DNA from: Nitrosarchaeum sp.
GTDB taxonomy: Archaea; Thermoproteota; Nitrososphaeria; Nitrososphaerales; Nitrosopumilaceae
Assembly: GCA_965223865.1 (NCBI GenBank)
Contig: OZ245020.1
Span: forward strand, 1,536,001-1,600,000
Direction: 5' to 3'
DNA length: 64,000 nt
How positions within the stretch are numbered: position 1 is the first letter of the stretch; every line of letters starts with the position of its first letter. The notes under the pieces were generated by a model. It saw only the letters and a program-made list of their open reading frames with translations, was not told the DNA's origin and searched no databases. Both the position numbers and the translations under genes were made by a program. Shown here piece by piece: positions 41,531 through 62,945 of this stretch.

Positions 41531-41557
41531 TTTCAGAAATAGTTTTCAGGTGTGGAA
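41531..41557. promoter_or_regulatory. Tandem box A between divergent rhodanese and DUF302 genes
   Basis: TTTCAGAAATAGTT / TTTCAGGTGTGGAA; 43 bp from each start. Confidence 0.65.
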
Positions 41558-41599
41558 ATCGTATTTCTGTAATATATTCATTTGAAATGTAAGTGAGCC

Positions 41600-43774: not shown

Positions 43775-44272
43775 TTACAATGCCAAAAAAATATCCTCAG
43801 AATGTTCTTTTTTATTATTGAGTAGTTTTGAAAACTCTTTTCTAAATGTGTATTTTAGCAATCCCATATTTTTTATCTCATAGTATGTTTTTTTGTCATT
43901 TGTTATTTTTTCTATTATGTCATTTTTTATTAATTCCGAAATATTCCACGATGTTGTCGCAGGACTCTTGCCAATTTTGGATACAATCTCCCTGAAAGTG
44001 GGAGTTCCTTTCACTATTATTGTAAAGAGGATTTTCTTTTTCGTAGGTTTTCTCAAGTTTCTTATAATATCAAATTCTTCTTCATCTATATCTAGAGAAA
44101 AATATCGGTGATACCTTGTGTATTTTTTTGATTTTATCTTTCCTTCTTTTTCTAATTTTCGCAGGTAATGCTCAGTTACACCCTTTTCTAGTCCAGTTTC
44201 ATTAATTATACCACAGAAATGAATCCCAGGATTATCCTTGATGGTCTCCAGTATGAGATCTGATCTTTTCAA
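43775..44272 (-). CDS. Double winged-helix regulator
   Basis: IKDNPGIHF..HYLRKLE; second HTH SPATTSWNISEL. Confidence 0.85.
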   Translation of the reverse strand: MKRSDLILETIKDNPGIHFCGIINETGLEKGVTEHYLRKLEKEGKIKSKKYTRYHRYFSLDIDEEEFDIIRNLRKPTKKKILFTIIVKGTPTFREIVSKIGKSPATTSWNISELIKNDIIEKITNDKKTYYEIKNMGLLKYTFRKEFSKLLNNKKEHSEDIFLAL

Positions 44273-44300
44273 CCTAGGTTTTGTTGATGTTTATCAATAT

Positions 44301-44429
44301 CTAAGATTTTTGATGTATCTTGTATCTGGTTCCATCTTCATGGATGCATTCATCTCCGATGTGATGATGATTTTCATGTCCTTTGTGTTTGTGATGTTCT
44401 TGGTCTTCACAGTTGCAGGTTTTTTCCAA
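44301..44429 (-). CDS. 42-aa His/Cys-rich micropeptide, copy 1
   Basis: MEKTCNCEDQEHHKHKGHENHHHIGDECIHEDGTRYKIHQKS (TTG start); paralog at 58073; box A 44 bp upstream. Confidence 0.8.
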   Translation of the reverse strand: MEKTCNCEDQEHHKHKGHENHHHIGDECIHEDGTRYKIHQKS

Positions 44430-44472
44430 TGTTTGATGGCATCAAACTTGCTATTAATAATAAAAATATGAT

Positions 44473-44486
44473 TTCCAATATTGAAA
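44473..44486. promoter_or_regulatory. Box A (TTCCA-ATAT-TGAAA)
   Basis: 44 bp upstream of TTG 44429. Confidence 0.65.
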
Positions 44487-44535
44487 TCAAAAATATTAAA
44501 AATTGATTTGATTCCAACCAACTACATTCAAAAAA

Positions 44536-45249
44536 CTAGCCATAGATAGTATCTCTAATCTGTTCTGTCTCTTTTTGTGTTTTTTTGATTCTTTTTTCAG
44601 CCTTGGCAGACTCATTTTTTATTATTTTAAGATTGCACGGTAGTTTTGGTATGAACATTCCCATTGTAAGGCATAATTTTGCTCCAGATTCAAAATCTGG
44701 ACTATTCTTTGTTTTAGGAAAAAATAGCAAAACTATGACCCCTTGATTAGAAAATCTTCCTTGGTTTAACAACATACCTGGAATTCCGGGTATTGTAAGA
44801 TCCAAGGACATCTCAATTCCAAGAGATTTTATCTCGTTTCTTGCATTCTCAGTACTGCCAATTGCAGCTATGTCTTTAGTGAGTTTTGGATTCATTACCA
44901 TTCCTACAGTGCTGATTATCTTCTTGCAATGATGTTTTTTTGCATATTCTAACATTACCTTTGCAATTGCTCGTGAAAATGATTCGGGTAAAGACAGATG
45001 TGACAAAAATACTGCAACTTTGAGTTTTTCATTTACAAAGATGTTTACTGGATAATATGGAATACCACCTCTTACTAGACTTATTGGAGGAAAATCTACT
45101 GAGTTTAAAAAACCTGCAAGTTTAAAATCGGATGTACTTGTCATTGATTCTGCAGCAATACTGCCTGCAAGACCCACATTTGGAAAACCATCTATTACGT
45201 AGCCCCCTTCCAGATCACAATCCAGAAGTTCTGTTATTTCGATGATCAT
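44536..45249 (-). CDS. PAC2-family proteasome assembly chaperone-like protein
   Basis: IDGFPNVGLAGSIA, PDFESGA, C-terminal IYG (HbYX-like). Confidence 0.85.
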   Translation of the reverse strand: MIIEITELLDCDLEGGYVIDGFPNVGLAGSIAAESMTSTSDFKLAGFLNSVDFPPISLVRGGIPYYPVNIFVNEKLKVAVFLSHLSLPESFSRAIAKVMLEYAKKHHCKKIISTVGMVMNPKLTKDIAAIGSTENARNEIKSLGIEMSLDLTIPGIPGMLLNQGRFSNQGVIVLLFFPKTKNSPDFESGAKLCLTMGMFIPKLPCNLKIIKNESAKAEKRIKKTQKETEQIRDTIYG

Positions 45250-45468
45250 GAGATCAGTTATGCATTATAATCTAAAAGAAAGCAAGAACAATATCAAAGG
45301 TGAAAATGAACAAGACAAGATACATGAAAAATTATCTCAAATTTATTATTTGCATGCATGTATTTTCTGTAACAAATTATAGATAACCCACAATATTGTT
45401 TTGGGATGATTGCAAAACTGAAATGACTTGTGACACAATTAAGGTTGGTTTTCAGTCACAATTATAAT

Positions 45469-45696
45469 TGCAATTCAACACATTGCAAACGGACCTATTA
45501 TATCAAATTCTGCCAATATCTACTGTATGACCATAATCTGTAAGGGATATGCATTGAATCAAAGGGAATTCCTATGAGTAACAGTAAAAGATATCAAAAT
45601 GGGTAAAGACGATGTACATTTTGTAGTATATTCTTAGTAGCAGGTATTAGATGCCCTTGTTGTAAAGCAATATTGCGAACAAAACCACGCACTTGA
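45469..45696 (+). pseudogene. Decayed duplicate of 37386-37617 (box B promoter plus RCPCC zinc-finger gene)
   Basis: Clear DNA similarity; 1-nt deletion in codons 7-8 and a CAA>TAA change. Confidence 0.85.
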
Positions 45697-45788
45697 AATT
45701 TAATTTCAATTAACCAAGCACGCTACCGGATTATGTTTTATAATTATAAAATTAATTTGAAGAAAAATTAAAATCAGATGTTGAACAT

Positions 45789-46118
45789 TTATTGGTTGAA
45801 AATTAATTCTACTTCCATCTGACCTTTTTTGAATTGGCTTTGAATTCCTTTTATTTTACTCTTGTACAAGAAAAATTTCTTTCCATCCTCATTTATCATG
45901 CCAGACGTTTGGAGCAGTTTATTGTCATGAAGTGTTTGTATTCGTCTATATACAGTGCTGATTGGAATGTGAGTTTCTGTAGCTATTTCCATTGCTGATT
46001 TTGGCACATTCAAAATTGTTTTTATGATGGAGCGACAATATTTGTCTGAAACAACTGAGAGTATTGCATCTTTTGTAATGTCTTCTTCTATTTTGAATGC
46101 AGATTGTAACTCTTGCAT
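45789..46118 (-). CDS. ArsR-like winged-helix regulator
   Basis: VSDKYCRSII...IPISTVYRRIQTL...DGKKFFLYKS; start placed at ATG 46118, tandem box A at 46160-46186. Confidence 0.85.
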   Translation of the reverse strand: MQELQSAFKIEEDITKDAILSVVSDKYCRSIIKTILNVPKSAMEIATETHIPISTVYRRIQTLHDNKLLQTSGMINEDGKKFFLYKSKIKGIQSQFKKGQMEVELIFNQ

Positions 46119-46311
46119 GATTATACTTAACAGGCTATGATAAATTATGGATACATATTTTCTGAATTTGGTTTTCAACAATGGAAATCGTAGTGGGAAA
46201 TTGTCTATTTCTTTTGATGCCGTCCATAGATTTGAGGATCCAGATGTATTTATTGAGAATTGAATATGAAAATGAGTTTAATTTTTGAGAATATTTTATA
46301 CTTTTTTTCTA

Positions 46312-46893
46312 TTAATCATTAGCATATCCTCTAAGTTGATCATACAATGAAATCTGTTCTAAGCTTAAAACATCTGCTGTCTTAAGGTGAGCCTGAAGAT
46401 GGATATTTCTTAGTTGCCACTTTATCTCGCTGCTATTTTTTAGAAGTTCACTTAACTCCTCAGAAGTTATAGATTTGTCCACAAACTTTCCATCAATTTC
46501 TCTTTCAATTTCAATAAATTGCTGGCCAAGTGGCACTGCTTGTTGAGACATTTCCTGATAGAATAATTCAATTTGTTCTTTCTGTTCAGGGGTCAAATTA
46601 AGTTCTTCAGACAAATCTAAAACGTGTCTTGGTCCTGGATAGCTATTCAATTCAGCTGGTAAAGCCATTCCTACTCCATGACCTTTTGGAATTCCTGTCA
46701 ATTCTCTAGCAGTCAATGACTTTATTTCTCTTGTTTGCTCTCCTGCCCAAGGAGAATGAGTCATTGGTGTACTAGACATTTCTTCCTGATGGCCTTTTGG
46801 GTCTTCAGTTTCAAACATGATATATCCTACACCGATTCCAACAAGAAATACTCCAACTACGATTGGAATCCATAAAACCTGATTAAACGACAT
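46312..46893 (-). CDS. Membrane-anchored Spy/CpxP (LTXXQ)-like protein
   Basis: SPWAGEQTREIKSL..AELNSYPGPRHVL..LNLTPEQ..LSLEQISLYDQLRGY. Confidence 0.75.
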   Translation of the reverse strand: MSFNQVLWIPIVVGVFLVGIGVGYIMFETEDPKGHQEEMSSTPMTHSPWAGEQTREIKSLTARELTGIPKGHGVGMALPAELNSYPGPRHVLDLSEELNLTPEQKEQIELFYQEMSQQAVPLGQQFIEIEREIDGKFVDKSITSEELSELLKNSSEIKWQLRNIHLQAHLKTADVLSLEQISLYDQLRGYAND

Positions 46894-46914
46894 TTTATTC
46901 CCGATGTTTCAGAT

Positions 46915-47382
46915 TCAAGAATGCGAATACCCACGTAAAATGTCGTATTGCCTGATTTGTTCAGGATCTAGGATTTTTTTTGTAGCTAAATGACATCGTA
47001 AATGTGTAAAACGAAGTTTTCCCCATAATTCTCCTGATTTTTTCAGATACTCTTGCAATTGTTGCTCAGTCATCTCTTCTTTTGCAAATCCATCATCAAT
47101 CATTTTTTCCGTTTTGATAAACTCTTCACCTAATTCTTTTGCATCTTTTTCCATCTCATCGTAGATTTCTTGAGTCTGTTTTCTTTGCTCATTTGTTATG
47201 CCAAGTTGTTCACCTAGTTCTAAGACATGAATAGGTCCAGGATGGTGGTTTAACTCAGCAAGAATTGCCATTCCACCAAAAATTCCACCTCTTCCTCTTC
47301 GAATGATTTGAATATCTTTTTCAGAAAGGGATTTGATTTCTCTAGTTTCAAGACCAGAATATTTTGATTTTGTTTCACTCAT
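46915..47382 (-). CDS. Soluble Spy/CpxP-like paralog
   Basis: YSGLETREIKSLS..AELNHHPGPIHVL..LDPEQIRQYDILRGY; no signal peptide. Confidence 0.75.
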   Translation of the reverse strand: MSETKSKYSGLETREIKSLSEKDIQIIRRGRGGIFGGMAILAELNHHPGPIHVLELGEQLGITNEQRKQTQEIYDEMEKDAKELGEEFIKTEKMIDDGFAKEEMTEQQLQEYLKKSGELWGKLRFTHLRCHLATKKILDPEQIRQYDILRGYSHS

Positions 47383-47446
47383 GATATACTATTGTTACAA
47401 TTATGAAATTAAAACATCAGTACAATTTCCAAAGTTGGTTTTTGTT

Positions 47447-48325
47447 TCATAACAATAATGCAGCTTTACTTAGAAGGAAAATACCTGATGAAAATATTAT
47501 TAGAGAAAATACAAGTATGAGTTTTCTTGTGCTTATTTTATCAACTAATTTCACACCTAAAATTGAACCTGGAATAGAACCAATCAGTAACAGAAGAAGC
47601 GATGTGAATGAAATAGTATCCATCGAGTAGTGTAAAGTAGTTCCGACAAATGCCGCTACGATTCCAAATAATGCCATGGTTCCAGCAGCAATTTTAGGAG
47701 AATGTAATGTCTTTACCAAAACGGGAAGCATCATAGAAACTGCACCTAGTCCAGAAATTTGATAAATCAGGCTAATCGGGCTGCCTGAGAAAAGCCATGT
47801 AATGATGTTTTTCTTTGATGTGATTTCAGATTTTTGTGATGAATGATTTTCTTTAGTAATAAAATCAAGATGTTCAAAATCCTTTTTCAAAACATGAAAT
47901 TTTATCAGGTACAGAGTCAATCCCATGAAGATCATTCCCAGAAGTAGAAAGATCATATTGTCTAACACTTGAGAACCTTGAGTTGTTTCAACATACTCCC
48001 AGATAATTTTTCCTAAAAACATTGATGGAGGGACTGGAATTATCATTACTGCCAATGCTTTCCAATTTACATTGTGGTTTTTTGCATGAATCGTTGCAGC
48101 TGAAATTCTAGTAAATGCAAGAAATGCAATACTTGTTCCAACAACAGCCTGTGCAGGCATTCCAAGAATAATGAGAACTGGAAAAAGCATAGGAGCCCCA
48201 ATTCCAGATATTCCAATTGCAATGCCAATGCTAAAACCCACTATTATCAGGATAATTGCAATGATTGGCTCTGAAATTGCAGATACAAATTCTCCATTAA
48301 AAAAAAGCGTAAAATTTTCAATCAT
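47447..48325 (-). CDS. TauE/SafE-family exporter
   Basis: About 8 TM segments; GISGIGAP..P, VVGTS, AAGT, GSIPGSILG. Confidence 0.85.
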   Translation of the reverse strand: MIENFTLFFNGEFVSAISEPIIAIILIIVGFSIGIAIGISGIGAPMLFPVLIILGMPAQAVVGTSIAFLAFTRISAATIHAKNHNVNWKALAVMIIPVPPSMFLGKIIWEYVETTQGSQVLDNMIFLLLGMIFMGLTLYLIKFHVLKKDFEHLDFITKENHSSQKSEITSKKNIITWLFSGSPISLIYQISGLGAVSMMLPVLVKTLHSPKIAAGTMALFGIVAAFVGTTLHYSMDTISFTSLLLLLIGSIPGSILGVKLVDKISTRKLILVFSLIIFSSGIFLLSKAALLL

Positions 48326-49773
48326 CTAAAAATCGCAGGGACAAGAGTAGTCATAAGTATCGTCAAAACTACCACCATTATCAGAGTAAGAGGTAACCCC
48401 ACTTTGGCTAGTTGTTTTGTAGTTACATACCCACTCCCTAAAACAACTATGTTTGGAGGAGTACCCACAGGCAGAATAAATCCATAGCTAGTTGCAATGG
48501 CAACTGGAATCATGAATAGTAGTGGGTCCATATTTAATGATGTAGACAATGCAGCAGCTACAGGAATCAAAAGTGCCGCAGTTGCAGTATTGACTACAAA
48601 TTGAGTCGTAATCATAGCAACTACCACCAACACCAGAACTATGACAAAGGGTGGGAAATTTTCAAGAAATTCCAATTGGGTTGCCATCCATTGGTCAACA
48701 CCTGTAGATGTAAATCCAGCTGCTAAAGCAAGACCGCCACCTATCAGTAACAAAACGCCCCATGGAATTTTGATTCCTTCATCCTTTGATAAGATCCTTC
48801 CATTTTCTTTTGAGGGTAAAACAAAAAATGACATTGCAGCAATTATTGCAATTACCGCATCATCTATCATTGGAAGGTACGGCTTCCACAAAATATGAGT
48901 AATCCAAGCAGTTGCAGTAGCTCCAAATACTGCTAGGACTAATTTTTGATCACGTGTAATACTACCTAACTCTTTTAATTTTTTTACAATGACTTCTTTT
49001 TCATCAATAATGTTTGTTGATTTTAGTTTAAAACCAACATTAGTCAAATACCATCCCGCAATAATTAATGAAATTATTGTAACAGGAATTCCAATCATCA
49101 TCCATGATGAAAAATTAATGTCAATCTCAAACATTTTGTCAGCTACAGAAGAACAGATGATGTTTGGTGGAGTTCCAACCAATGTTGCAATTCCTCCTAT
49201 ACTTGCAGCAAATGCAATCGAAATCATCAGGGAACTTCCAAATTTTCCTCGTTCCTCTGGTTGTTTTACCTGGCTAATCACGGCCAAGGCAATCGGCAAT
49301 ATCATCAAAGTTGTTGCAGTATTACAAATCCATGCACTAATTGATGCAGTAACTACCATGAATGCAAAAATAATTAGTTTGGGACTGCCATTGGGAATAA
49401 TCTTTAAAGTTGTCAGAGCAAATCGTTCATGAAGATTGGTTTTCTGAATTGCTTTAGCTAAAATAAAACCTCCCAAAAGCAGGAAAACTAACCGATGAGC
49501 ATAATTTGTGGCAGTATCTGAAAGAGGAGTTACCTGCATTACTGGAAAAAGCACTATGGGCAAAAGTGCTGCAACATAAAGTGGAACTGCCTCTGTGACC
49601 CACCAGGTTGCCATCCAAATGGCAGTTCCCAGGACAATTTGACCTTCAAAAGAAAGTCCCTCTATTGGCAAAAAAATGGTAATTAGGAATAATATGGGTC
49701 CTAAAATCAAACCAATTCTGCTGATCTGATTTCCTGTTTTACCAAGAATTTCAATCGGCCTTTTTTTAAGCAA
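48322..49773 (-). CDS. DASS/SLC13 sodium:anion symporter
   Basis: WWVTEAVP, SAWICNTATT, GGIATLVGTPPN, FILPVGTPPN. Confidence 0.93.
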   Translation of the reverse strand: MLKKRPIEILGKTGNQISRIGLILGPILFLITIFLPIEGLSFEGQIVLGTAIWMATWWVTEAVPLYVAALLPIVLFPVMQVTPLSDTATNYAHRLVFLLLGGFILAKAIQKTNLHERFALTTLKIIPNGSPKLIIFAFMVVTASISAWICNTATTLMILPIALAVISQVKQPEERGKFGSSLMISIAFAASIGGIATLVGTPPNIICSSVADKMFEIDINFSSWMMIGIPVTIISLIIAGWYLTNVGFKLKSTNIIDEKEVIVKKLKELGSITRDQKLVLAVFGATATAWITHILWKPYLPMIDDAVIAIIAAMSFFVLPSKENGRILSKDEGIKIPWGVLLLIGGGLALAAGFTSTGVDQWMATQLEFLENFPPFVIVLVLVVVAMITTQFVVNTATAALLIPVAAALSTSLNMDPLLFMIPVAIATSYGFILPVGTPPNIVVLGSGYVTTKQLAKVGLPLTLIMVVVLTILMTTLVPAIFR

Positions 49774-52219
49774 TTTTTGCCTCCCTGACCTTGCTTGGAG
49801 GAGTCCATCTCTTTAGGAGTAGAGAGCTAGATACAACAGAGACAGAACTTGCAGCCATTGCTAATCCTGCAAGTGCAGGATAGAGCAATCCAATTCCGGC
49901 TACAGGAATCAAAATTGTATTGTAAACAAATGCATAAAACAAATTGTATTTTATTTTGCTGATTGTTTTTTTGCTGATTTCTATTGCAGAAACCACATCT
50001 TTTAGCTCTTCTCTTACAAGAATAATCATTCCAGCTTCCAAAGCAATGTCTGTACCACCTCCAATTGCAATTCCAACATCAGATTGAGTAAGTGCTGGAG
50101 CATCATTGATACCATCCCCAACCATTGCAACAATTTTTCCTTGATCCTGAATTTTTTTTACTTCATCAACTTTTTCTGAGGGAATAACGTTTGCCACAAT
50201 TTTTTCAATACCCAAGTCCTTCCCAATTGTCTTTGCAGTTTTTTCATTATCGCCTGTTAGCATTACAACTTCAATTCCTAACTTTTTTAACAAAGAAACA
50301 GTTTCTTTGGAGTCTCTTTTTGGCATATCTAAAAATGAGATAATACCTATCGGTTTGTTATCCAATGCGATTATTGAAACAGTCTTTCCTTGTTCTTGCA
50401 GTTTGATAACATCTTGCATTGCATTTTTGATTTCAATTTTTTCTTTTTCAAACAACTTTGGATTTCCAACAACAATTGTTTTATTTTCAAAAGTAGCTCT
50501 TACCCCACCTCCTGGAATGGATTCAAATGTGTCAGGATCTTTTACATCAATTTTGTTTTTTATTGCTTGTTTGACTACTGATTTTGATAGAGGATGCTCA
50601 GAATTTTTTTCGGCAATAGCTGCAAATCGTAAAACATCAGATTTTTCAATTGGCACATCTTGTTTCACAGTAAGAATATCTGAAATCTTTGGTTTTCCTT
50701 CTGTCAGAGTTCCTGTTTTATCAAAAACAATTGTCTGAACTTTGCCCAACAATTCAAGTCCTTGACCACCCTTGAAAATTACTCCATTTTGGGCAGCTTT
50801 TCCCATCCCCACCATGACTGCTGTAGGGGTTGCCAACCCCAATGCACATGGACATGCTACCACAAGGATAGCCACAGTAGGAATAATTGCAGCCAATATC
50901 AAGCCAGGAGCTCCAAAGAAATACCATGCAAGAAAAGTAATTATTGCCACGCCTATTACAATGAATGAAAAATATCCTGCAATTTTGTCTACCATCTTTT
51001 GCATTGGAGGTTTTCGGCCCATTGCGTCTTCAACCAATCCAACAACTTGAGAAAGGAACGTGTCACTTCCAACTTTGAGTGTCTTTAACAATAACGAACC
51101 TTCTTTGTTGATAGTTCCCCCAATGACTTTGTCATTGATCTTTTTAGTTACGGGCAAGGACTCGCCAGTTACCATGGATTCATCCACTGCTGAAATTCCT
51201 TCAATTACAATAGAATCTACGGGGATTTTTTCTCCAGGCTTAACAATTACAATATCTCCTTGCTGTAATAGTTCAATGGGAATATCTTCTTCGTTTTCTC
51301 CTCTTTTCACTCTAGCAACCTTTGGTTGAAGCTCTAACATTTTTCGGATAACTGAGGATGCCTTTCCTTTGGTTTTGTTTTCCAGATATTTTCCCAATAA
51401 AATGAATGTGATCACCATGACTGCTGCCATGTAATGAATATTTTCCCATACTGGAATAGGAAATGTGTTGACTGCGCTGAAAACATAAGCAGTTGTTGTT
51501 CCAAGAACAATCAGGGTATCCATGTTTGCTGATTTCATTTTGGCCATCTTGAAGGCACCGACATAAAATCGCCAGCCCATTCCAATCTGAACTACACTTG
51601 CGCATGCAAAAGAAAAGTAGGCTCCCTCAATTGTTCCTGCGTAAGGAAATCCAAGATACATTCTGGAGAGCTCACCTAAGAGTACAACAGGAATTGAAAA
51701 AATCACCCCAATAATAAACAGCCGTTTGATTTTTTTTGCTTCAATCTCTTCAGCAGAAGCTGAGAGATCTTCACTGAGAATTTCAAAACCTGAATCTGTG
51801 ACATATTTTCGAATGTCTGATAATGAAAGCAAGGCGGGATTGTATTCAACACGAATTTGCCCTGTTCCAAAATTTACGGATGAGAATCGTACACCTTCTT
51901 TTTTTGCCAACAAAGTTTCTAACTTTTGAGCATCACTGGCATCAGATATTCCTGATACTACCAACATCAATTTTTCATAAACTACTTTGTATCCTGCATC
52001 AGTAACTGCTTTTTCAAGTATGTCTAGGTTAACTTTAGATGGATCATATTGCATGACGGCTTTTTCAGCACCTAAATTAACATCACATTTTTCTACGCCT
52101 GGAATATTTGAAACATGTTTTTGGATTGCAGAAACACACCCTGCACAGGTCATTCCACCAATTTTTACTACTGCCCTTTTTTGAGACTCTAATTTTGATT
52201 TATTCATTTTATCCACCAT
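49766..52219 (-). CDS. copA: Cu(I)-translocating P1B ATPase
   Basis: GMTCAGC HMA domain plus a second Cys-less HMA, TGES, CPC, DKTGT, SEHP, YN and MAASS. Confidence 0.93.
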   Translation of the reverse strand: MVDKMNKSKLESQKRAVVKIGGMTCAGCVSAIQKHVSNIPGVEKCDVNLGAEKAVMQYDPSKVNLDILEKAVTDAGYKVVYEKLMLVVSGISDASDAQKLETLLAKKEGVRFSSVNFGTGQIRVEYNPALLSLSDIRKYVTDSGFEILSEDLSASAEEIEAKKIKRLFIIGVIFSIPVVLLGELSRMYLGFPYAGTIEGAYFSFACASVVQIGMGWRFYVGAFKMAKMKSANMDTLIVLGTTTAYVFSAVNTFPIPVWENIHYMAAVMVITFILLGKYLENKTKGKASSVIRKMLELQPKVARVKRGENEEDIPIELLQQGDIVIVKPGEKIPVDSIVIEGISAVDESMVTGESLPVTKKINDKVIGGTINKEGSLLLKTLKVGSDTFLSQVVGLVEDAMGRKPPMQKMVDKIAGYFSFIVIGVAIITFLAWYFFGAPGLILAAIIPTVAILVVACPCALGLATPTAVMVGMGKAAQNGVIFKGGQGLELLGKVQTIVFDKTGTLTEGKPKISDILTVKQDVPIEKSDVLRFAAIAEKNSEHPLSKSVVKQAIKNKIDVKDPDTFESIPGGGVRATFENKTIVVGNPKLFEKEKIEIKNAMQDVIKLQEQGKTVSIIALDNKPIGIISFLDMPKRDSKETVSLLKKLGIEVVMLTGDNEKTAKTIGKDLGIEKIVANVIPSEKVDEVKKIQDQGKIVAMVGDGINDAPALTQSDVGIAIGGGTDIALEAGMIILVREELKDVVSAIEISKKTISKIKYNLFYAFVYNTILIPVAGIGLLYPALAGLAMAASSVSVVSSSLLLKRWTPPSKVREAKIA

Positions 52220-52291
52220 TGATTCTTCGCAATTCGTGTTGTTTTGGAAGTCAAAAAGAAAAAAAGAATTTACGCATATACACTTCTGAAT

Positions 52292-52588
52292 TTAGCTTGA
52301 ACCAGCAACAGAATTGAAGAATTTAGGTCCTTCAGGATCTCTCTCCATGTAACTTCTGGCTTGCTCATGCATTTTACCATGAGTTTCACTAGAATGTAGT
52401 TTGTCAAACTGTTCTTTGCTGTCCCATTCGGCTACAATTGTATATGTGCCCTCTTCGGATTCCAAAAGCCTTCTGGATACAAATCCATCATTTTTTGAAA
52501 TCTCCTTGTTTGATTCATTAAACCAATTCTTAAAATCAGCAATAGAATCTTTCTTTATTGGTACGTTGCTATGAATTGCTACGAACAT
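52292..52588 (-). CDS. ABM (antibiotic biosynthesis monooxygenase)-fold protein
   Basis: DGFVSRRLL..YTIVAEWDSKE..HSSETHGKMH; box A at 52631-52644. Confidence 0.85.
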   Translation of the reverse strand: MFVAIHSNVPIKKDSIADFKNWFNESNKEISKNDGFVSRRLLESEEGTYTIVAEWDSKEQFDKLHSSETHGKMHEQARSYMERDPEGPKFFNSVAGSS

Positions 52589-52757
52589 GTTGTAATTGTC
52601 ACATTTCCATAATTAAGGAAGTATCACAATTTCCAATGTTGGTTGTAGTGTTGGTTCATTCGATAAAAGTACCAAAAAGCTAAAGAAGGATTTGTGAGAC
52701 AGCAAGGTCTTAGCTATTTTTTGCTCTAACTTTTTGTTTAATTTTAAAATAATATCG

Positions 52758-54272
52758 TCATTTTATAATCATATCCAAAAAGATTGTTTTTACTACAAGT
52801 CCGTTTGATGCGCTAATTGCAAGTGTATGATTGCTTGATGACATGTTATCATTGGTCAGTGTCAAGTTTATGATCTTTGAATTTTCTATTTCGTTTAGAT
52901 CAATAGTATCCGAAGGAAATGATGATGTCATATTTACCAGCTTCCCTGAAATTCCTATCGAACTTGATGTAGTTAAGTGAATTTTGGAATGGTCACCATA
53001 GCTCCATAAATTTTCAAATTCTGTATTTTTTGATAATGTGATTTTTACCGTCTTTTTGGATTTGTCAAGTGGAGATTCAAACTCTATTATGTTAGTATCT
53101 GAGCTAATCTCAAAGGGAAGCAGCAAACTTTTATCCACAACCCCAATCTTTCCAAGATTCCACTCAGAAAACCAAAGGTTATCGTGATTGGTAGGATCCG
53201 TATCTATGTTAAGAATCTGAACCAAAAAACCATCTTTGGGCCTACTTTGAATCTCGTATTCTGTTAATGTGTTATCTGTCAAATTGAAAAAAGCCACTCT
53301 GTTTCCAGTGTGTTCATTGAACCATATCCCTTCATTATCGCCGCTTGCTCTTAGCCAAAAAGGCAGTGATGTTCCAACCTGTGATAGTGGAGAGGTGGGA
53401 TATCTCTTCCATTCTTTTGTACTCATATCATATTCAGTCAGAAAACTGGTTCCATGCTCAGTAGTCCATAATGTGTCATTTAGAATCAGAATATCTGTGG
53501 GGGATGCTGGAAAAAGACTTTCATGGTCGGGGATTTCAAGGGATTTCTTTAGATCTAAAACATCACCAAATTCATCTCTAATCACTAAAAATTTTACAAT
53601 CTTGTTATCTGTTATTTGAGAGACCCATACAGCATCTTCTGATTTATCTAAAACTATTCCACTGGGTCCTGTATTTTCTCCAACATCAAATTCTGAAATC
53701 TCAAATATGTCTAGATTAGGATTTTTTTGTACAACTCCAACTTTGTTACTTTGCAAAGCAGTGTACCAGATTTCCCCTGTATTAAGATCGGACTTCATCT
53801 GAAAGGGAGCAACACTTGTGTAATTGAAAGATGTAAATTTTTTTGTTTCAGGATTGAATTGCAGTAGGTGATTAGCACCTGTTCTTGAAAACCAAATTGT
53901 TCCATCATTATTTTGTAGTATTGACCATGTCATCTAGTTATTGTCATTTTGATCAATATTGTTTTGATTGATCAAATATGATGCAATTATCTTCTCACTT
54001 GCAGGATCAAAATGCACCAATCGAGGAAGATTTGTGTCTGTAATCCAAATTGTACCTTTTTCATCTATCTCAATTGCATTGGGAAATACATTTTCTTGTA
54101 ACTGATATTCTTTTACATATGAGATTTTTTGCTTTGGCTCATTGAAATGTGGCACATTTATTGGAATAGATTCAATATCATCCGATTCTTGTGATGTTAA
54201 TTCATCAGCAATAAAGTATGAAACAATTGCAATAATGCCAATCATTATTGCAATAGCCTGAACTCTTCTCAT
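52758..54272 (-). pseudogene. Vgb-like beta-propeller surface protein interrupted by an in-frame TAG
   Basis: ORFs 53934-54272 and 52758-53933 are in the same frame, separated only by TAG; WFNEHTGN-type blades. Confidence 0.75.
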
Positions 54273-54293
54273 TTAGTATGCCTCATTAGATAT

Positions 54294-54410
54294 TCAATCA
54301 TGACTAATTTTGATTTTTATGACCTGCAAGCAAAAGATACAAACATCATAGTAAACATTCCAGATTTTTCGTTCACATCCACAATTACAACAACATTTCT
54401 TGTCTTGCAA
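54294..54410 (-). CDS. Cys-rich microprotein (CxCNCGC type)
   Basis: MQDKKCCCNCGCERKIWNVYYDVCIFC... (TTG start); directly downstream of the CBS gene. Confidence 0.45.
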   Translation of the reverse strand: MQDKKCCCNCGCERKIWNVYYDVCIFCLQVIKIKISHD

Positions 54411-54419
54411 GGCTAGCTT

Positions 54420-54938
54420 TTACTCATTGTATTCAAAAAATTCTTCACATTTGTAACAGTATAATCTATGTGTACCATCAGTCAGTTCTGTCTTGACAAG
54501 ATCAACTTCAGTATGAAGAGGACAGGTTCCCTTGATTTGTTCATTTGTTGAGAATCTAAAAAAACGCAAAATATCGGTTGCTGTAATGATGCCGGAAATC
54601 TCTCCTGCATCAAAAACTGGAATCTTTCTTATCTTTTTTTCAATCATGATATCAGATACTTGCAAAACTGACTCTTCAGGTGAAACATGAATAACAGGTG
54701 AAGTCATTACTTCAGAAATTTTTGTAGATGGAGAAATTTCATTGGAAATTACTTTGACTGCAAAATCTCTTTCAGTCATAATTCCAACAGGTTTGCTATT
54801 CTTCATTATTACTACTGAACCAACTCCATCATCTTCCATTATTTTTGCTGCTTGTTGTATGGTGTGTTCTGAATGAACCATCTCCACATCTTTTGTCATT
54901 AAATTTTTCACTGGAATTTTTGAAGGATCATTTCTCAA
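54420..54938 (-). CDS. CBS-pair protein with a C-terminal zinc ribbon
   Basis: PVGIMTERDF, GIITATDI; CPLH...CYKC; start placed at TTG 54938 (box A 45 bp upstream). Confidence 0.9.
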   Translation of the reverse strand: MRNDPSKIPVKNLMTKDVEMVHSEHTIQQAAKIMEDDGVGSVVIMKNSKPVGIMTERDFAVKVISNEISPSTKISEVMTSPVIHVSPEESVLQVSDIMIEKKIRKIPVFDAGEISGIITATDILRFFRFSTNEQIKGTCPLHTEVDLVKTELTDGTHRLYCYKCEEFFEYNE

Positions 54939-55015
54939 GATAAACAAGATATACTTCAAATCAATTTAACATACAAGATAATTTTCAAACTTGAAAGAAA
55001 CTATATGCTGTACAA

Positions 55016-55321
55016 TTACTCTTGAAAATAAAAAGTATCGTATTTTTCATGTAATTTTCTTACTTGTTTTTTACAAATAATCCAGAATTGTTTGTATTCT
55101 CCGTCAGTCATTGAACGTCCGTAACTGGAATAAAACCACTTTACAAACTCATCTTCTATTTTGCCAAACACAAATCCCAGATGAAAGTCCTCTGAGATTT
55201 TTATTCCAAATTGTCTTTTTGGTTGTAAATCGTCCCATCTTGAAGACATTCCTTCAAAGGAGTACTGAGAATTTTCAAGTAGGTTTTCTAGATATTTTAT
55301 TGCAGTATCTTCAAGTTTCAT
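55016..55321 (-). CDS. Hypothetical protein
   Basis: 101-aa ATG ORF starting about 10 bp after the upstream gene's stop. Confidence 0.7.
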   Translation of the reverse strand: MKLEDTAIKYLENLLENSQYSFEGMSSRWDDLQPKRQFGIKISEDFHLGFVFGKIEDEFVKWFYSSYGRSMTDGEYKQFWIICKKQVRKLHEKYDTFYFQE

Positions 55322-55331
55322 GCTTATGATA

Positions 55332-56912
55332 TTATTCTAGAATTGTTCCCCAACCACGCTCAGCAAGCTTCTTTGCAGTGGCAGGAAGGGTGCATGCAAT
55401 CTTGCCCTTTATGCTCTCAATCCAAACTTTACCTTCACAGATAATGTCTTTTGACATCATTTCAGGCTCTGTAGTCATTGTGCTTTGTAATGATTCACCT
55501 ATCTCTTGTGCAGATATGGTTCCAGAAACTGTCATGGTTTGTGCATTTTTTGGTATTTGAAGCGAGATCATACGTGTCTTTTCGCCCAGTTTGAATTCCT
55601 CATGAGTGATAGAATTTCCATCTAATCTTACATCAAACTTTGCGTCATCGCCATCACTTTGTTTTGCATCCAAGACATTTCGTGGAATTTGTATGGCAAC
55701 TTTTCCTCCATCTTCTGTTTCTAGATTTAGCATAAGCATGTTTGATTGAGTGTTAACAAATGCATCAGATGCTGTGACATCCTGTCCATGAAAGTGAATC
55801 AAATCCAAAAAGACAGCCGGGGTCTCGAGTGTAACTACAGGCAATGAAATAGAAATTGATTCAGGTCCCAATATCAAAATCTCATCAGTTGCCTTTAAGG
55901 ATGCATAAAACTTGTGTGTGTTTGGATTTACTTCAAGATCCCATGATTTAGAGTCAACATCCCAACTTGAGACAATCTCATTTGTGTTGCCATCTATTTT
56001 TACAATCTTGTTTTGTGTAAGATAAGAAGCAAAAATTTGGTGTTCTGCCGTATCCACCGCAATTGCTTGTGCCCTATCACCTAGAGAAATAGTATCAACA
56101 ACTTCTTTTTCTAAAATGTTGATAACTGTAATACAGTCGCAGCCTCGATTAGTTACATAAGCTAGATGCCATAATGGATCAATATCTAAACCCCAAGGAG
56201 CTCCCAAAACTTGAATAGTTTCAGTAATTTGATGTACTGGAGTAGAAGAGTGTTGTGTACGCGGCACTTGCTCTAAAAATGAAATTTCATTTCCTGCAAG
56301 ACTTGCAACGATTACGGTATTAGTTATAGGGTCTGCACGTACAGTAAATGGATGTCTTGGCACAGGCACAGTTTCAATTACTTCATCGTTATTTCCGTCT
56401 ATGACGTAAATCAAATGTGAGTTGTAATCGGCCACGTAAAGTAGTTGGTTTGTTGGGTTGTAATCAATCGACCAACCACCTGTTAGAAAGTGCAAATCTG
56501 ATCTATGTCCATAAGGTTGGTTTGATGTGGTCTGAATTGTAATCTCAGATTCTGGCAAAGGAATGGTCTTTATGAGTAGTTTTGTGCTTAATGCGTAGAC
56601 GTCAATGCCTCCACTCTCAAATGCAGCAACGTAAATCTTATTTTTATCAGGAACTGGCTTGATGTCCATTATTCCTGATGAGGACGTGGTGATAAAACCA
56701 GCATCTTTGTTATTTTTTATATCAATTATTGATACTCGTGGATACTCAAAACTTGACACATAGAGGGAATCATCTACTAGTGCCATGTTCATTGGAGTAC
56801 CTGTAACAGGGATTTTTTCTAAGACATGATGAGCAAAAGCACTTTCTTCTTGATTAGCATAAACTGAGAATGTAATTACAAAAATTAAGATACTTACTAG
56901 AAGAATTTTCAT
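55332..56912 (-). CDS. Secreted YVTN/YncE beta-propeller protein with thaumarchaeal C-terminal domains
   Basis: Signal ..AFA|HH, YVAD/YVTN blades, IPRNVLDAK domain, KKLAERGWG tail; start placed at ATG 56912. Confidence 0.88.
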   Translation of the reverse strand: MKILLVSILIFVITFSVYANQEESAFAHHVLEKIPVTGTPMNMALVDDSLYVSSFEYPRVSIIDIKNNKDAGFITTSSSGIMDIKPVPDKNKIYVAAFESGGIDVYALSTKLLIKTIPLPESEITIQTTSNQPYGHRSDLHFLTGGWSIDYNPTNQLLYVADYNSHLIYVIDGNNDEVIETVPVPRHPFTVRADPITNTVIVASLAGNEISFLEQVPRTQHSSTPVHQITETIQVLGAPWGLDIDPLWHLAYVTNRGCDCITVINILEKEVVDTISLGDRAQAIAVDTAEHQIFASYLTQNKIVKIDGNTNEIVSSWDVDSKSWDLEVNPNTHKFYASLKATDEILILGPESISISLPVVTLETPAVFLDLIHFHGQDVTASDAFVNTQSNMLMLNLETEDGGKVAIQIPRNVLDAKQSDGDDAKFDVRLDGNSITHEEFKLGEKTRMISLQIPKNAQTMTVSGTISAQEIGESLQSTMTTEPEMMSKDIICEGKVWIESIKGKIACTLPATAKKLAERGWGTILE

Positions 56913-57246
56913 GATTTTTGTAAAAAAATACAAAATAAAAGAGAGCATCACAATTTCCAATTTTGGGTTTTAGAAGATATTCGGATTTGAAAACTCTGAA
57001 AATAAAAAAACAGATCCGTTATATCTAGAATCAAGCATATTATTTTGATGATAATACACTGTGAATGTGGAATTTGTAGACACCAAGTTGAACCTGAATG
57101 CATCGAAAAAGAATGTCAGTGTTGTTCTAATTTCCACTTGCGTTCTGGATAACACGCTGAAATTTTAATTATAATCAGAACTTGTAGTTTTACAAGTTTT
57201 ACTAAAAAGAATTATTTCATCTGTTATCCACTAGATCTGAAATTTC

Positions 57247-57597
57247 TTAACTTCGGATAATCGGACTTGCTCTACCAGATATTTTCACAATATCAGAATC
57301 AGATGCAATTTTAGCTACTTGTTCTAAGTTCAACCTACTCATTGCAAGAAGAGCAGTTTCAGCCGTGGATTCTGCTTCCAATGCAAACTTGTCTCTTAAT
57401 TCATTGAGTTTCCTATTCATATCCAAACCTGATTTGTATTCTATGACAAGAGTCACTTGAGGTTCTTTGACGTATTCCGAAGCCAGTTTTCTTTCCAGAT
57501 ACATTACTCTATGTACAAAATTAGGATCTACATTTGGTAATTTGCTTTGCAGGTTTGACAAGTACTGATCGTAAATAGATTCTATTTCTTGACTCAT
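57247..57597 (-). CDS. Hypothetical protein
   Basis: 116-aa ATG ORF; box A-like site 43 bp upstream. Confidence 0.7.
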   Translation of the reverse strand: MSQEIESIYDQYLSNLQSKLPNVDPNFVHRVMYLERKLASEYVKEPQVTLVIEYKSGLDMNRKLNELRDKFALEAESTAETALLAMSRLNLEQVAKIASDSDIVKISGRASPIIRS

Positions 57598-57678
57598 GAC
57601 ATATCAACCATTTCGATAATTATAAAACAAATTGATGAATATCACATATGATTTTCAAATTACAATAAATGCTATGGT

Positions 57679-58086
57679 TTAGAACCAAAAAGTATTTCCA
57701 TTTTTCATTACTGACAATTGCGAAGAACTTTGATATTCTGATGCACCATGCCAGTGAATAGTGCCAGAAGGAATCAACACTGCATCATTTTCTTCTAATT
57801 CAATTGATTTTTCTATTCTGAGATTTGCCTTTGTATTGTCACTGATGGGGTCAATTCCAGAATATGCAACAAGATGACCTTTTCCTTTAATGGCAACAAT
57901 AATCTGATCAGAGTCATGAAGGTGGAGTTTTGATCTTGAACCCTTCTCAAAATCAATAAAGTACATCTTTAATTCTGATGTGGATAGTTTTTCAGATAAT
58001 CTGTTTAGTCTAATTTTGCCTAGCTTGTGACCCGTTTTATCAATTTCTAACTTTTGATTGATTTTGATTTTCTTAATGCTGTTCAT
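57679..58086 (-). CDS. Cupin-domain protein
   Basis: SKLHLHDSDQII..G.G, IPSGTIHWHGA; start placed at ATG 58086. Confidence 0.88.
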   Translation of the reverse strand: MNSIKKIKINQKLEIDKTGHKLGKIRLNRLSEKLSTSELKMYFIDFEKGSRSKLHLHDSDQIIVAIKGKGHLVAYSGIDPISDNTKANLRIEKSIELEENDAVLIPSGTIHWHGASEYQSSSQLSVMKNGNTFWF

Positions 58087-58204
58087 GAATTGGGTGTCTT
58101 GTTCCATCTGGATGAATGCATTCGCCATTCTCATGTTTATGGGTACTCTTATCTCCCTTGCAATGCTCATCTGAGCAGTTACATTCAGTTGCCATGTGTG
58201 CCAT
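58073..58204 (-). CDS. 40-43-aa His/Cys-rich micropeptide, copy 2
   Basis: (MAH)MATECNCSDEHCKGDKSTHKHENGECIHPDGTRHPIHEQH; box A is 43 bp from the second ATG (58195). Confidence 0.8.
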   Translation of the reverse strand: MAHMATECNCSDEHCKGDKSTHKHENGECIHPDGTRHPIHEQH

Positions 58205-58237
58205 GAAGCTAATGTATTATTAAAAAAGATTTATGAT

Positions 58238-58264
58238 TTCCACCAATGATTTCCAAAAAAGGAT
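58238..58264. promoter_or_regulatory. Tandem box A between divergent genes
   Basis: TTCCACCAATGATT / TTCCAAAAAAGGAT; 43 bp from ATG 58195 and from ATG 58307. Confidence 0.6.
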
Positions 58265-58564: not shown

Positions 58565-59053
58565 ATTATTTTATTACCATTTGTTTAATGCATTTCTTTT
58601 TCAGAAAATCTTTAGTAAAATCATAGGAATAGACAGTTGTGAGGCCTCATTGCGAAAAAATCTGGTGGCAGATGAGGTCAAAAACAAATTCTAACCATAT
58701 TATTTTTTATTTTTCTCGATGTCATCAACAAGCAACTCATCTCCAACATAGATGTACGCAAAAAGCTCCTGGTTTCCAGTTGTCTCTATTGTCATCCATC
58801 CTGTGGGACCAAGTCCCTCCAGAACATACATTGTCTCTACCTTGGATGTGTTTCTGTCAATTACCTTGACCCTTGTCCTCTGTATGATTATCTCTTCAGA
58901 ATGTGAAAAGATCCGGATCGGCTCCTGTTTGCCGTCCTTGTTAATTCTGACTAGTTGAATCTTCAGTTAGCAGCACCTTCATTGAATGCAAAGTTAATGC
59001 CATCTTGTTTGAGACAAACCAAATTCAGATTATCCAAACCACTCATTGTTGTG

Positions 59054-59095
59054 GTATACTATTAGTATACTATTGCATATATACTTTTAGTATAC
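59054..59095. promoter_or_regulatory. Paired GTATAC-N5-GTATAC palindromes
   Basis: GTATACTATTAGTATAC and ATATACTTTTAGTATAC between divergent starts. Confidence 0.6.
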
Positions 59096-59103
59096 CGGGA
59101 TTT

Positions 59104-59256
59104 ATGGGCATTGTGAAGAGCATAGAGATTGTTACTAGAGTTTCCAACATGGGAGACAAAAAGATCATAATTATACCAAAACACTATCATGAACTACTGA
59201 AAAAACGCAATCTTTTGGACAAGGAAATAGCTGTTACACTGGAACAGCTTACCTAA
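59104..59256 (+). CDS. AbrB/SpoVT-like small DNA-binding protein
   Basis: TRVSNMGDKKIIIIPK...LLDKEIAVTLEQL. Confidence 0.65.
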   Translation: MGIVKSIEIVTRVSNMGDKKIIIIPKHYHELLKKRNLLDKEIAVTLEQLT

Positions 59257-59450
59257 TTAGTGTTAACATAATCAAGTAGGAACATACAGTGTTAACATAA
59301 GCAATTGAATTTGTGCGCAATTCTTATCTACGATCATTGTGTTATTACTGTCTCATGAGGGAAAGCATGTCAACCCAATTAGAATTCCATATAAAAAACA
59401 GCAAGATGTCAACGCTGAGGCTTACCTATATTCAGAGGTAGGTAATCAAG

Positions 59451-60005
59451 CTGCCTGGCAAAAAGATACACCAGTTAAACATACGGTTAAACCAGAACAA
59501 TTACGACATGCTAAACAAAATATCAAAGGATAAAAACCAAAGCCCAAGCACAGTGGGTTCACAAATAATATCACAGTGGATTGAGTTCTACTATTACAAG
59601 ATACATCGGGGCGATGTAATTTTTTCAAGACATGTAATCAAAAAGTTAATCAGTATTTTGGACAAGTCAAAGATTGAAAAGGTTTCTGAATTTATGGCAA
59701 ACCATATCATAAAAGAGATACGACTACAGGAAGGCAATGTCACATATCCTGTATTGACTGAGCACATTCTAAAATGGAACAGGGGAAACAGTCTAAAACT
59801 AAACAAGATAACAAAAAAAGATGCTGGCAACTACAATGATTCCTCAGACATGTTTATCTCAAAACACAGCCTTGGATGCAACTGGTCTGAGCTAGAATGC
59901 AAGACATACACAAAAGCCTTTGAGAAGATAGGACAAACGGTGACATCAATCGAATATGATGAGGATAGTTTTTGTTTTAGTATAACCAACAGATATAACA
60001 AATAA
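59451..60005 (+). CDS. RHH plus V4R-like regulator, probable CTG start
   Basis: In-frame extension KKIHQLNIRLNQNNYD supplies the RHH strand; KHSLGCNWS motif. Confidence 0.65.
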   Translation: MPGKKIHQLNIRLNQNNYDMLNKISKDKNQSPSTVGSQIISQWIEFYYYKIHRGDVIFSRHVIKKLISILDKSKIEKVSEFMANHIIKEIRLQEGNVTYPVLTEHILKWNRGNSLKLNKITKKDAGNYNDSSDMFISKHSLGCNWSELECKTYTKAFEKIGQTVTSIEYDEDSFCFSITNRYNK

Positions 60006-60045
60006 TAAAACACAACAATTTTTTGCAAAAAATTATGCGTAAATG

Positions 60046-60081
60046 CTAGCATTTGTAGCATTTCTAGCATTTGTAGCAAAG
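60046..60081 (+). repeat. Four 9-bp tandem repeats (STAGCATTT)
   Basis: ctagcattt gtagcattt ctagcattt gtagcaaag, just upstream of a TTATAT box and ATG 60125. Confidence 0.8.
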
Positions 60082-60124
60082 ATAACATGGGTGGTTATAT
60101 GCAATTGGCACCATACCATGTTGC

Positions 60125-60982
60125 ATGACATATTCACAAACACAAAACATCAAAACAAATCGCACGATAAATAGAACAGAAAGATTACAAGCATCATCGA
60201 CACAAGACATATGTCTATGTCAAAACAAAGAACGTCAATTAGTCACAACAGTTGAGGAAAGTGAGATTGTCTGCAAGAATTGTGGAGTTGTTTTTGGTTT
60301 TGATGAGGAGGACAACAGCAACATCATTTCGTATCAACACTTTACAAGATCCAAAATCAACTTGTATCAAAAAAGACAAAAGGGTGGAAATCCACATGAT
60401 GTAAAAAAGATAACACATATTCCCAATCTAAGATTGGAGAAAAGTAACAACTCAGACATCATTGCATTTGCAGATATTTGTGACAAGCTAAAACTATCTG
60501 ATGTCATATCTGAGAACTGCTGGAAGTTATACTGTGATTTGAAAAGGCATACAGGGAAATTTACCCGAGCAAAGGTGATGTGTCTTGCCATTTACCAGAC
60601 CTGCATGGACAGCTGCATTCCCTTTGATGAGGGAAAAATCCGAGACATGGTGTGCCAAAGCTTGGGAGTCAAAAATGCACCAATGCTAAAAAGCATTATC
60701 TTCAAGAGAGAAAAAGGAAAATACGGCATAAAATCAAACAATAAGGAGACATTCTATCTGAATTTGCATCTCTCCCAGGCACAACAAGACCATGATATCA
60801 AGGATATTACCATGCTAAGACGGATTGCAGCAAGATACTATGAAACCATTATAAAGCCGGCCTCTTCTTCTTCCTTAAAAAATAACGGATTATCACCTGT
60901 AATGAGAAATAATAATTCAGACTACAACACACTGGCCAAAAGGGCTGTGACACTGGCAATTCAGAGGTGTGCCATACAATGA
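60125..60982 (+). CDS. Divergent TFB-like protein (Zn ribbon plus one recognisable cyclin fold)
   Basis: CLC..LVTTVEESEIVCKNCGVV; ICDKLKLSDVISE..LAIYQTC; no EWR B-reader. Confidence 0.7.
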   Translation: MTYSQTQNIKTNRTINRTERLQASSTQDICLCQNKERQLVTTVEESEIVCKNCGVVFGFDEEDNSNIISYQHFTRSKINLYQKRQKGGNPHDVKKITHIPNLRLEKSNNSDIIAFADICDKLKLSDVISENCWKLYCDLKRHTGKFTRAKVMCLAIYQTCMDSCIPFDEGKIRDMVCQSLGVKNAPMLKSIIFKREKGKYGIKSNNKETFYLNLHLSQAQQDHDIKDITMLRRIAARYYETIIKPASSSSLKNNGLSPVMRNNNSDYNTLAKRAVTLAIQRCAIQ

Positions 60983-62145: not shown

Positions 62146-62156
62146 TAGTTCCATGA

Positions 62157-62882: not shown

Positions 62883-62915
62883 CTTCCAGAAATTTGGAAG
62901 TGAGACTGGACCTTT
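62868..62915. terminator. 21-bp inverted repeat (hairpin) at the operon end
   Basis: AAAGGTCCACTCTGACTTCCA-GAAATT-TGGAAGTGAGACTGGACCTTT, 19/21 paired. Confidence 0.5.
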
Positions 62916-62945
62916 TGGGTTTCAGAGTTTTATTGTTATTTCTGG

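Follow-up and report, generated by a model that had tools for sequence, protein, structure and literature searches.

A conserved, apparently undescribed family of His/Cys-rich micro-proteins in ammonia-oxidizing archaea and a palindrome in its promoters

Introduction

Several kinds of small Cys/His metal-binding proteins are known. Hpn of Helicobacter pylori is nearly half His, with long His runs and Cys-Cys pairs, and Hpn-like proteins serve nickel storage and show nickel-responsive expression. SWIM zinc fingers have strands before their CxC and a helix after their CxH. Bacterial metallothioneins (SmtA of Synechococcus, Pseudomonas metallothionein, and MymT) are small, of mixed Cys/His content, with CxC and few aromatic residues; according to PMC7387436, they form Cys9His clusters, and the Pseudomonas protein is induced in stationary phase, not by metal. 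Among archaea, the Haloferax C(P)XCG micro-proteins are shorter than 70 aa and have predicted metal sites (PMC11241148). In this study, we analyzed a stretch of 64,000 nucleotides from Nitrosarchaeum sp. (assembly GCA_965223865.1, contig OZ245020.1, positions 1,536,001 to 1,600,000; G+C 35%), hereafter the window, in which an original prediction had proposed two His/Cys-rich peptides as a candidate new Hpn/metallothionein-like family of metal buffers or chaperones. We refer to them as peptides 1 and 2.

Ammonia-oxidizing archaea (AOA) depend on metal enzymes and inhabit oxygen-poor waters and sediments, and the family may point to how they handle metal at low oxygen. A literature search, outside which most subscription papers fell, found no description of the family or of the palindrome site reported below, and it listed neither a metallothionein-like store nor an oxygen-responsive operator for AOA.

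Two peptide genes masked by longer reading frames

Both open reading frames (ORFs) are present as predicted: peptide 1 has 42 aa with nine His and three Cys, peptide 2 has 40 aa with seven His and four Cys, and the motifs CNC.D.EH and ECIH.DGTR..IH occur in both. The initial Met assigned to peptide 1 is, however, a TTG codon. The peptides are 45% identical, and their alignment score, 94, lies above the highest of 5000 shuffles (64). Since they fall into different sequence types (B and A), they do not derive from a recent duplication. A second in-frame ATG at 58204 would extend peptide 2 to 43 aa; because the spacing of the A/T box fits leaderless transcripts, the start at 58195 is preferred.

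Each gene is indeed masked by a longer ORF, peptide 1 by one in another frame (44294-44521) and peptide 2 by the cupin frame when opened to an ATG at 58170. In the peptide frame, 11 type A genes give a pooled pairwise ratio of non-synonymous to synonymous substitution rates (dN/dS) of 0.09, compared with 0.24-2.1 across the five alternative frames. For 23 type C genes, the corresponding values are 0.078 and 0.27-3.1; the pairs are not independent, and the type C figure was computed without locus L035. Between peptide 2 and its relative in L019, there are 14 synonymous changes at 21.6 sites and six non-synonymous changes at 95.4 sites, whereas the cupin-extension frame of the same pair shows two synonymous and 18 non-synonymous changes. 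This extension frame is open in 11/11 type A cores with a dN/dS of 1.3 over the 11 type A genes, and the extension is therefore a shadow frame. On these frame-specific substitution patterns, the longer overlapping ORFs were rejected as the true genes, and the peptide ORFs are real genes of a conserved family, with selection shown for types A and C. Longer shadow ORFs hide the family, together with neighboring conserved micro-protein genes, from annotation.

Ligand pattern and predicted fold

The family shares a CxC, one further Cys/His, and then H-x4-C-x-H-x-DG-x2-H. All seven positions, with Cys/His swaps allowed in the N-terminal knuckle, are present in 122 of 136 distinct cores, although the seventh is loosely defined because the linkers are His-rich. 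His21 occurs in 136 of these cores, His28 in 135, Cys26 in 134, His34 in 133, and CxC in 125, and the turn residues Asp30 and Gly31 occur in 134 and 132, respectively. Each core contains three to nine other histidines. Over the family, His averages about 16%, while Cys has a median of 3 and a range of 1-6. At the N-terminal positions, Cys and His replace each other between subfamilies, as metal ligands do, and the Micrarchaeota forms carry an extra CxxC at the C-terminus. Two tetrahedral ions that share a bridging thiolate would need seven ligands.

An AlphaFold model places strands at residues 20-22, 25-27, and 33-35, with a predicted local distance difference test (pLDDT) of 75.7 and a predicted template modeling score (pTM) of 0.44, and the type C peptide yields the same three-stranded meander (pLDDT 60.5, pTM 0.34). 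In the strand register, deduced without coordinates, His21, Cys26, and His34 would lie in one row and His19 and His28 in the next, all on one face. Foldseek returned no match at an expectation value (E) of 0.001, and VIA-align returned one chain (Z 2.1, root-mean-square deviation 2.7, 33 residues aligned); these results do not establish the fold as new. The unit behaves as a domain, as it is fused to NitrOD1 (P0064 and L001) and to a four-Cys zinc-ribbon-like tail (P0057, P0080, L022, and L062). Collectively, the seven fixed positions around a predicted beta-meander suggest a folded two-zinc mini-domain rather than a poly-His Hpn or a Cys-rich metallothionein, and the family, judged from its sequences, probably binds zinc.

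The family was also compared with described proteins. His makes up 21% of peptide 1 and 18% of peptide 2, the longest His run is three, and Cys-Cys pairs are absent (0). Hpn is likewise small, His-rich, with at most four Cys, and without a signal peptide, but the family, at its lower His content, lacks long runs and holds its fixed His in the predicted meander. The family shares its small size, mixed Cys/His ligands, CxC, and scarcity of aromatic residues with metallothioneins. In these, however, about nine Cys are expected; the window peptides have three and four Cys, and His exceeds Cys in the family. No metallothionein model was among the best 25 of 31 families listed for 77 members. The proposed kinship with Hpn or metallothionein thus fails on both composition and hidden Markov models; by analogy, the family may nevertheless work like a metallothionein. 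The MxCxxC of CopZ/Atx1 is absent from both peptides, and no CopZ model matched. The CxCxnCxH spacing of SWIM (PMC10236294) recurs as C5-x-C7-x18-C26-x-H28, but the family has three further conserved ligands. The Pfam SWIM model matched neither peptide, for peptide 2 not even at E 10, and the family models, at pTM of only 0.44 and 0.34, place strands around CxH, which itself is predicted in a strand and turn. Finally, the paired C(P)XCG motifs of the Haloferax proteins are absent from both window peptides, whose ligands are mostly His.

Family size and distribution

Protein searches retained 9/9 candidates and then 65/1543 at E ≤ 10, with 23 proteins reaching E 0.001 among 1.84 billion representatives. 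The total is 79 database proteins, and wherever names were displayed, they read only "hypothetical protein"; alignment A3 holds 75 of the 79, and four were excluded for internal repeats or truncation. The originally proposed pattern, CxC-x(15,25)-ECIHxDGT, does find homologs but captures only 28 of 81 family proteins. The DNA pattern used to scan GTDB recovers 67 of the 81; it matched 66 stretches, which comprise 53 distinct Nitrososphaerota genes (two stretches overlap) in 43 genomes counted by accession prefixes, together with five Micrarchaeota genes and one Pacearchaeota gene in six DPANN genomes, 59 archaeal genes in all. Seven bacterial matches, without CxC and without start codons in place, were dropped as chance. 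Records titled N. maritimus or N. viennensis were absent from the pattern matches, for which the misses of the pattern might account. The family is therefore one of AOA, as proposed, but is not confined to them. One genome has four copies, and Nitrosarchaeum sp. BD3 carries the gene at locus L063. Members sort into five sequence types, of which a few-column tree supports only C and E well; this tree places peptide 2, with weak support, closest to proteins from Nitrosarchaeum records.

Neither window peptide matched any Pfam family at E 0.1 or any NCBIfam family at E 1, and the PDB sequences gave a single match at E 0.36. Over 77 members, the commonest Pfam match was Tcp10_C (nine members, best E 0.0018), which we read as a likeness of the PDG hairpin. 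PHROGs gave weak scattered matches, chiefly to fused tails; in the ESM Atlas, a single lead (0.76) was obtained, with no usable match for a type C peptide; phage and plasmid records and Rfam gave none. A search for long fusions between 208 and 2000 aa, a range excluding 119-207 aa, found none. The expectation of a new family appears to hold: it is real, conserved, unannotated, and apparently undescribed, and its sequences place it within a known kind, the small Cys/His metal-binding proteins.

A palindrome upstream of box A

Box A had been placed 43-44 bp upstream of both genes. This position is instead an arm of a separate conserved palindrome, and the TATA-like stretches lie closer to the starts, at a spacing that probably fits leaderless transcripts at both genes (Table 1). 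The palindrome, at -58, has the form ATW(A/T)TCA-N4-TGRAAAT. Its matrix was built from 26 non-window sites (23 type C and three others), with a seed pattern drawn up after the window and loci had been viewed; the score test is not fully blind. Scores of at least 16 occur three times in the window, compared with 0.23 times per shuffle (30 shuffles). Scores of at least 9 precede 33 of 60 family genes, seven of these outside the training set, and by type are found before 23/23 C, 7/14 A, and 3/12 B genes.

The palindrome is not restricted to the family. It precedes 22 of 532 neighboring ORFs, compared with 4-14 at six shifted positions, and 10 of 29 Usp/CBS-cluster ORFs, compared with 1 of 225 housekeeping ORFs, orthologs being included in both counts; Hsp20, P-II, DUF1059, and two cupredoxin-type genes also carry it. 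Among the window ORFs, 6/70 score at least 11, compared with 0-2 at eight shifted positions, and these include the P-II, DUF302, Spy-like, and beta-propeller genes, while the window CBS gene scores 9.3. Six further window sites lie 58-61 nt before P-II, DUF302, Spy-like, beta-propeller, and two unannotated genes.

Since it stands directly upstream of box A, which in archaeal promoters is the position of activators, the palindrome suggests an activator site; an alternative TFB could, however, use it as a variant basal element. The plan resembles the DosR-type dormancy regulon of mycobacteria, in which Usp and CBS genes stand under one palindromic site, but the organism and site differ, and the regulator here is only putative. 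In two sponge thaumarchaeal symbionts, UspA, HSP20, CBS, and P-II are among the hypoxia-induced genes (10.1101/2023.02.27.530229). Collectively, the evidence points to a fixed fold with a stress-type promoter rather than to a metal-sensing operon.

Two unannotated window ORFs also bear the palindrome, namely, a 51 aa Cys/His ORF at 39970-40125 (+) (at -58, score 15.7) and a 58 aa ORF at 2560-2736 (+) (at -57, score 16.7). A different, perfect palindrome, TTGAT-N4-ATCAA at 44284-44297 (-), lies after the stop of peptide 1 and ahead of the wHTH start (see below); we take it to equal the bacterial FNR box, and about 0.2 occurrences would be expected by chance in the window (hand estimate).

Neighboring genes

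As predicted, each peptide leads into a second, co-oriented gene: a double winged helix-turn-helix (wHTH) gene after peptide 1 and a cupin gene after peptide 2. The wHTH gene begins 28 nt past peptide 1, an arrangement found at no other locus, and the two are presumably co-transcribed. It scores under the ArsR/SmtB cut-off (26.1 vs 55 bits). Cyanobacterial SmtA has a divergent SmtB-type repressor, whereas the wHTH gene here is downstream and co-oriented as well as below the cut-off. The cupin ATG lies within the end of peptide 2, and this 14-nt overlap recurs in L012 and L066, with a remnant in L048; the two genes would be translationally coupled.

Table 1. Coordinates of the two peptide genes, their promoter elements, and associated features in the window
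Feature	Position	Strand	Remark
Peptide 1 (type B)	44301..44429	-	42 aa; TTG start; Tyr at conserved His34
Box A (TATA)-like A/T stretch, peptide 1	44453..44464	-	about -35 to -24
Conserved palindrome, peptide 1 (putative regulator site)	44470..44488	-	at -59; score 16.2
Double wHTH gene	43775..44272	-	Pfam HTH_24 + HTH_HVO_0163_N
Peptide 2 (type A)	58073..58195	-	40 aa; ATG start
Box A (TATA)-like stretch, peptide 2	58217..58226	-	about -31 to -22
Conserved palindrome, peptide 2 (putative regulator site)	58235..58253	-	at -58 (-58 to -40); score 17.7
Cupin gene, 135 aa	57679..58086	-	Pfam Cupin_1; ATG within last 14 nt of peptide 2
N-terminal cupin extension masking peptide 2	58087..58170	-	coding selection not seen
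CopA-type copper ATPase (context)	49766..52219	-	TIGR01511 above cut-off; 5-6 kb from each peptide gene
Further palindrome site	12220-12238	+	
Further palindrome site	41542-41560	+	
Further palindrome site	47424-47442	-	
Further palindrome site	56952-56970	-	
Further palindrome site	21077-21095	-	
Further palindrome site	18922-18940	-	

Type C genes lie between leucyl aminopeptidase and ABCE1 in Nitrosopumilaceae. A coupled 62-aa ORF starts across the peptide stop codon in 20 of 23 type C loci, and in 2/23 this partner is lost with the peptide retained. The 62 aa ORF (for example, L015:6803-6988 (-), and in 19 other type C loci) is unannotated, with a mean column identity of 89%, and is followed by a small opposite-strand ORF with C2H2-like spacing. 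As this small ORF parts the type C unit from ABCE1, an Fe-S link via ABCE1 was rejected. Among the 28 non-type-C AOA loci, Usp genes are found at nine, CBS genes at six, a cupredoxin-like cluster at 12, and CopA/HMA motifs at none (0); these are raw counts over contigs that are often short. The six DPANN loci have DUF134 (four), NifX-like (three), and ZIP (three) genes, together with MinD-ferredoxin genes, ZnuABC at one locus, and a NikR-like gene at 1/6. In L041, a ZIP gene lies 17 nt downstream of the peptide. Taken together with the DPANN neighbors, the ZIP gene of L041 indicates that the contextual metal signal is zinc or general, not copper.

Functional interpretation

We tentatively favor, at a probability somewhat short of even, a stress-induced cytoplasmic two-zinc mini-protein that would act as a labile zinc store or buffer, with low oxygen as the probable trigger. 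The coding selection, the seven fixed Cys/His positions, and the palindrome at about -58 are shown, and the metal, stoichiometry, trigger, and role are inferred. The protein, of about 40 residues, would be made from its own, probably leaderless, promoter. Its CxC-x(2-6)-Cys/His knuckle would pack on the single meander face bearing His21, Cys26, His28, and His34, so that two Zn(II) ions would be held and would share a bridging thiolate, and the variable extra histidines would offer weaker, exchangeable sites. In Nitrosopumilaceae, a putative activator would bind the palindrome next to box A, on its upstream side, and switch on the peptide genes with Usp, CBS, Hsp20, and P-II under stress, likeliest a shortage of oxygen or energy. 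The Pseudomonas metallothionein, which responds to stationary phase and not to metal, is a precedent. During stalled growth, the archaeal protein would form a small redox-labile metal store and would supply or shield metalloproteins, for example, the coupled cupin.

Several observations weigh against this zinc store. Seven fixed ligands provide a low capacity, the fusions to other domains suggest a structural domain, and the ligand geometry depends on the strand register alone, without coordinates. Predictions of this kind can fail, although only 5/14 predicted Haloferax zinc-finger micro-proteins were zinc-free (PMC11241148). The palindrome is found in 0/7 Nitrososphaeraceae/Nitrososphaerales genes, 0/6 DPANN genes, and 0/5 type E genes; its matrix consists of 23 orthologous type C sites and three others, and the neighbor counts include orthologs. 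The three Usp genes of the window score just 6.7, 4.1, and -3.3. Moreover, the hypoxia link is one of gene class in other organisms, and the same classes answer other stresses too.

The main rival, close to the zinc store though in itself somewhat unlikely, is a structural zinc-finger-like module in which the metal only holds the fold. The protein would act by binding a nucleic acid or another protein and so serve the coupled gene as a small regulator or adaptor. The fixed fold and ligand set, the CxC-xn-CxH spacing as in the SWIM signature (PMC10236294), the zinc-ribbon-like tail fusions, and the 62-aa ORF that begins across the type C stop codon agree with such a module, as does the fusion to NitrOD1, a putative signaling output domain (PMC5847659). 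However, the partners vary by subfamily (cupin, Usp, ZIP, 62-aa ORF, wHTH, and ATPase), many copies have none, the two type C loci that lost their partner keep the peptide, and few surface residues are conserved beyond the ligands and the DG turn.

For peptide 1 alone, the TTG start and the Tyr at His34 suggest that its gene may be decaying. It is among 3/136 distinct cores without His34, whereas P0003, an 86%-identical relative, retains both an in-frame Met and His34. We nevertheless consider it unlikely that this copy is a decaying or mis-sequenced member of an otherwise genuine family: its reading frame, palindrome, and box A are all intact, TTG or GTG starts also occur in L001, L002, L029, and L033, and His37 might replace the missing His34.

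It appears distinctly doubtful that the peptides buffer or chaperone copper (or nickel) for CopA and for the copper proteins that ammonia oxidation requires. Cys/His sites can bind Cu(I), CopA is encoded between the two window genes, and cupredoxin-type genes accompany the family both in the 12 cluster loci and under the palindrome. However, copA is nearby only in the window, with no CopA or HMA/CPC motif at the other fetched archaeal loci (many contigs are short), its start scores only 0.3 for the palindrome, and CopZ models are unmatched, so that the suggested copper-chaperone link finds no confirmation. The DPANN copies sit in zinc and Fe-S gene clusters, and the two promoter motifs of the N. 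viennensis copper response (PMC7785015) look unlike the palindrome by eye. A leader peptide, whose translation or nascent-chain metal binding would control re-initiation at the coupled downstream gene, would agree with the position of the gene, which directly follows the promoter and at many loci touches or overlaps the start of the next gene, but is very improbable, as the conserved feature is a spaced ligand pattern with a turn and not codon runs, and the unit is also found alone and as a fused domain.

A bolder extension of the zinc store, which we regard as improbable, would make the family a His-dominated archaeal analog of metallothionein, built on a two-metal fold of its own and shared by AOA and DPANN, and the palindrome the operator of a Nitrosopumilaceae low-oxygen regulon. 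This regulon would span Usp, CBS, Hsp20, P-II, and many unannotated Cys-rich micro-proteins. If this is true, the palindrome would provide a direct handle on how AOA sense falling oxygen. Independently of this extension, the palindrome predicts which genes rise together in hypoxia and offers a bait for the regulator, and the promoter lead may outweigh the peptide in value.

Other features of the window

Positions 1-58000 read as an accessory stress island, with three Usp genes, CBS proteins, nitroreductases, PhaC, a cation P-type ATPase, an extra TFB, and a copy of amoC, next to which neither amoA nor amoB was seen. The presence of amoC marks the host as an AOA. At 59005-63647 (+), the gene content shifts to a TFB-like zinc-ribbon protein, unannotated ORFs, and an A24 prepilin peptidase-like gene; this right end is possibly the edge of an integrated element.

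Several other small Cys-rich ORFs were observed. An unannotated ORF of 34-35 aa with seven Cys and no Pfam match, at 57045-57152 (+), is 72-90% identical to ORFs in L012/L030, L041, L048, and L066. A 38 aa ORF with seven Cys, at 54294-54410 (-) directly after the CBS gene, is 64-75% conserved in L012/L030, L036, L041, and L066. A Cys-rich family of about 60 aa without a Pfam match has four copies, at 37444-37614, 38070-38258, 40132-40332, and 45544-45690 (+), one of them stop-interrupted, with relatives in L038 and L055. Two ORFs of 30-31 aa with six Cys, at 23571-23666 and 28863-28955 (+), are 90% identical to each other, with no clear relative in the fetched loci. At 10709-10891 (+), before a 2-oxoacid oxidoreductase beta-subunit fragment, a 60 aa ORF with nine Cys and three His is more metallothionein-like in composition than peptides 1 and 2 and has no relative in the fetched loci.

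Two larger features complete the set. Adjacent ORFs of 391 and 112 aa at 52758-54272 (-), with one in-frame stop between them, look like a split beta-propeller gene. The ORF at 34229-35260 (+) contains an Asp/Arg-rich unit repeated in a long tandem array, and in its C-terminal part it is similar to the ORF at 3715-3987.

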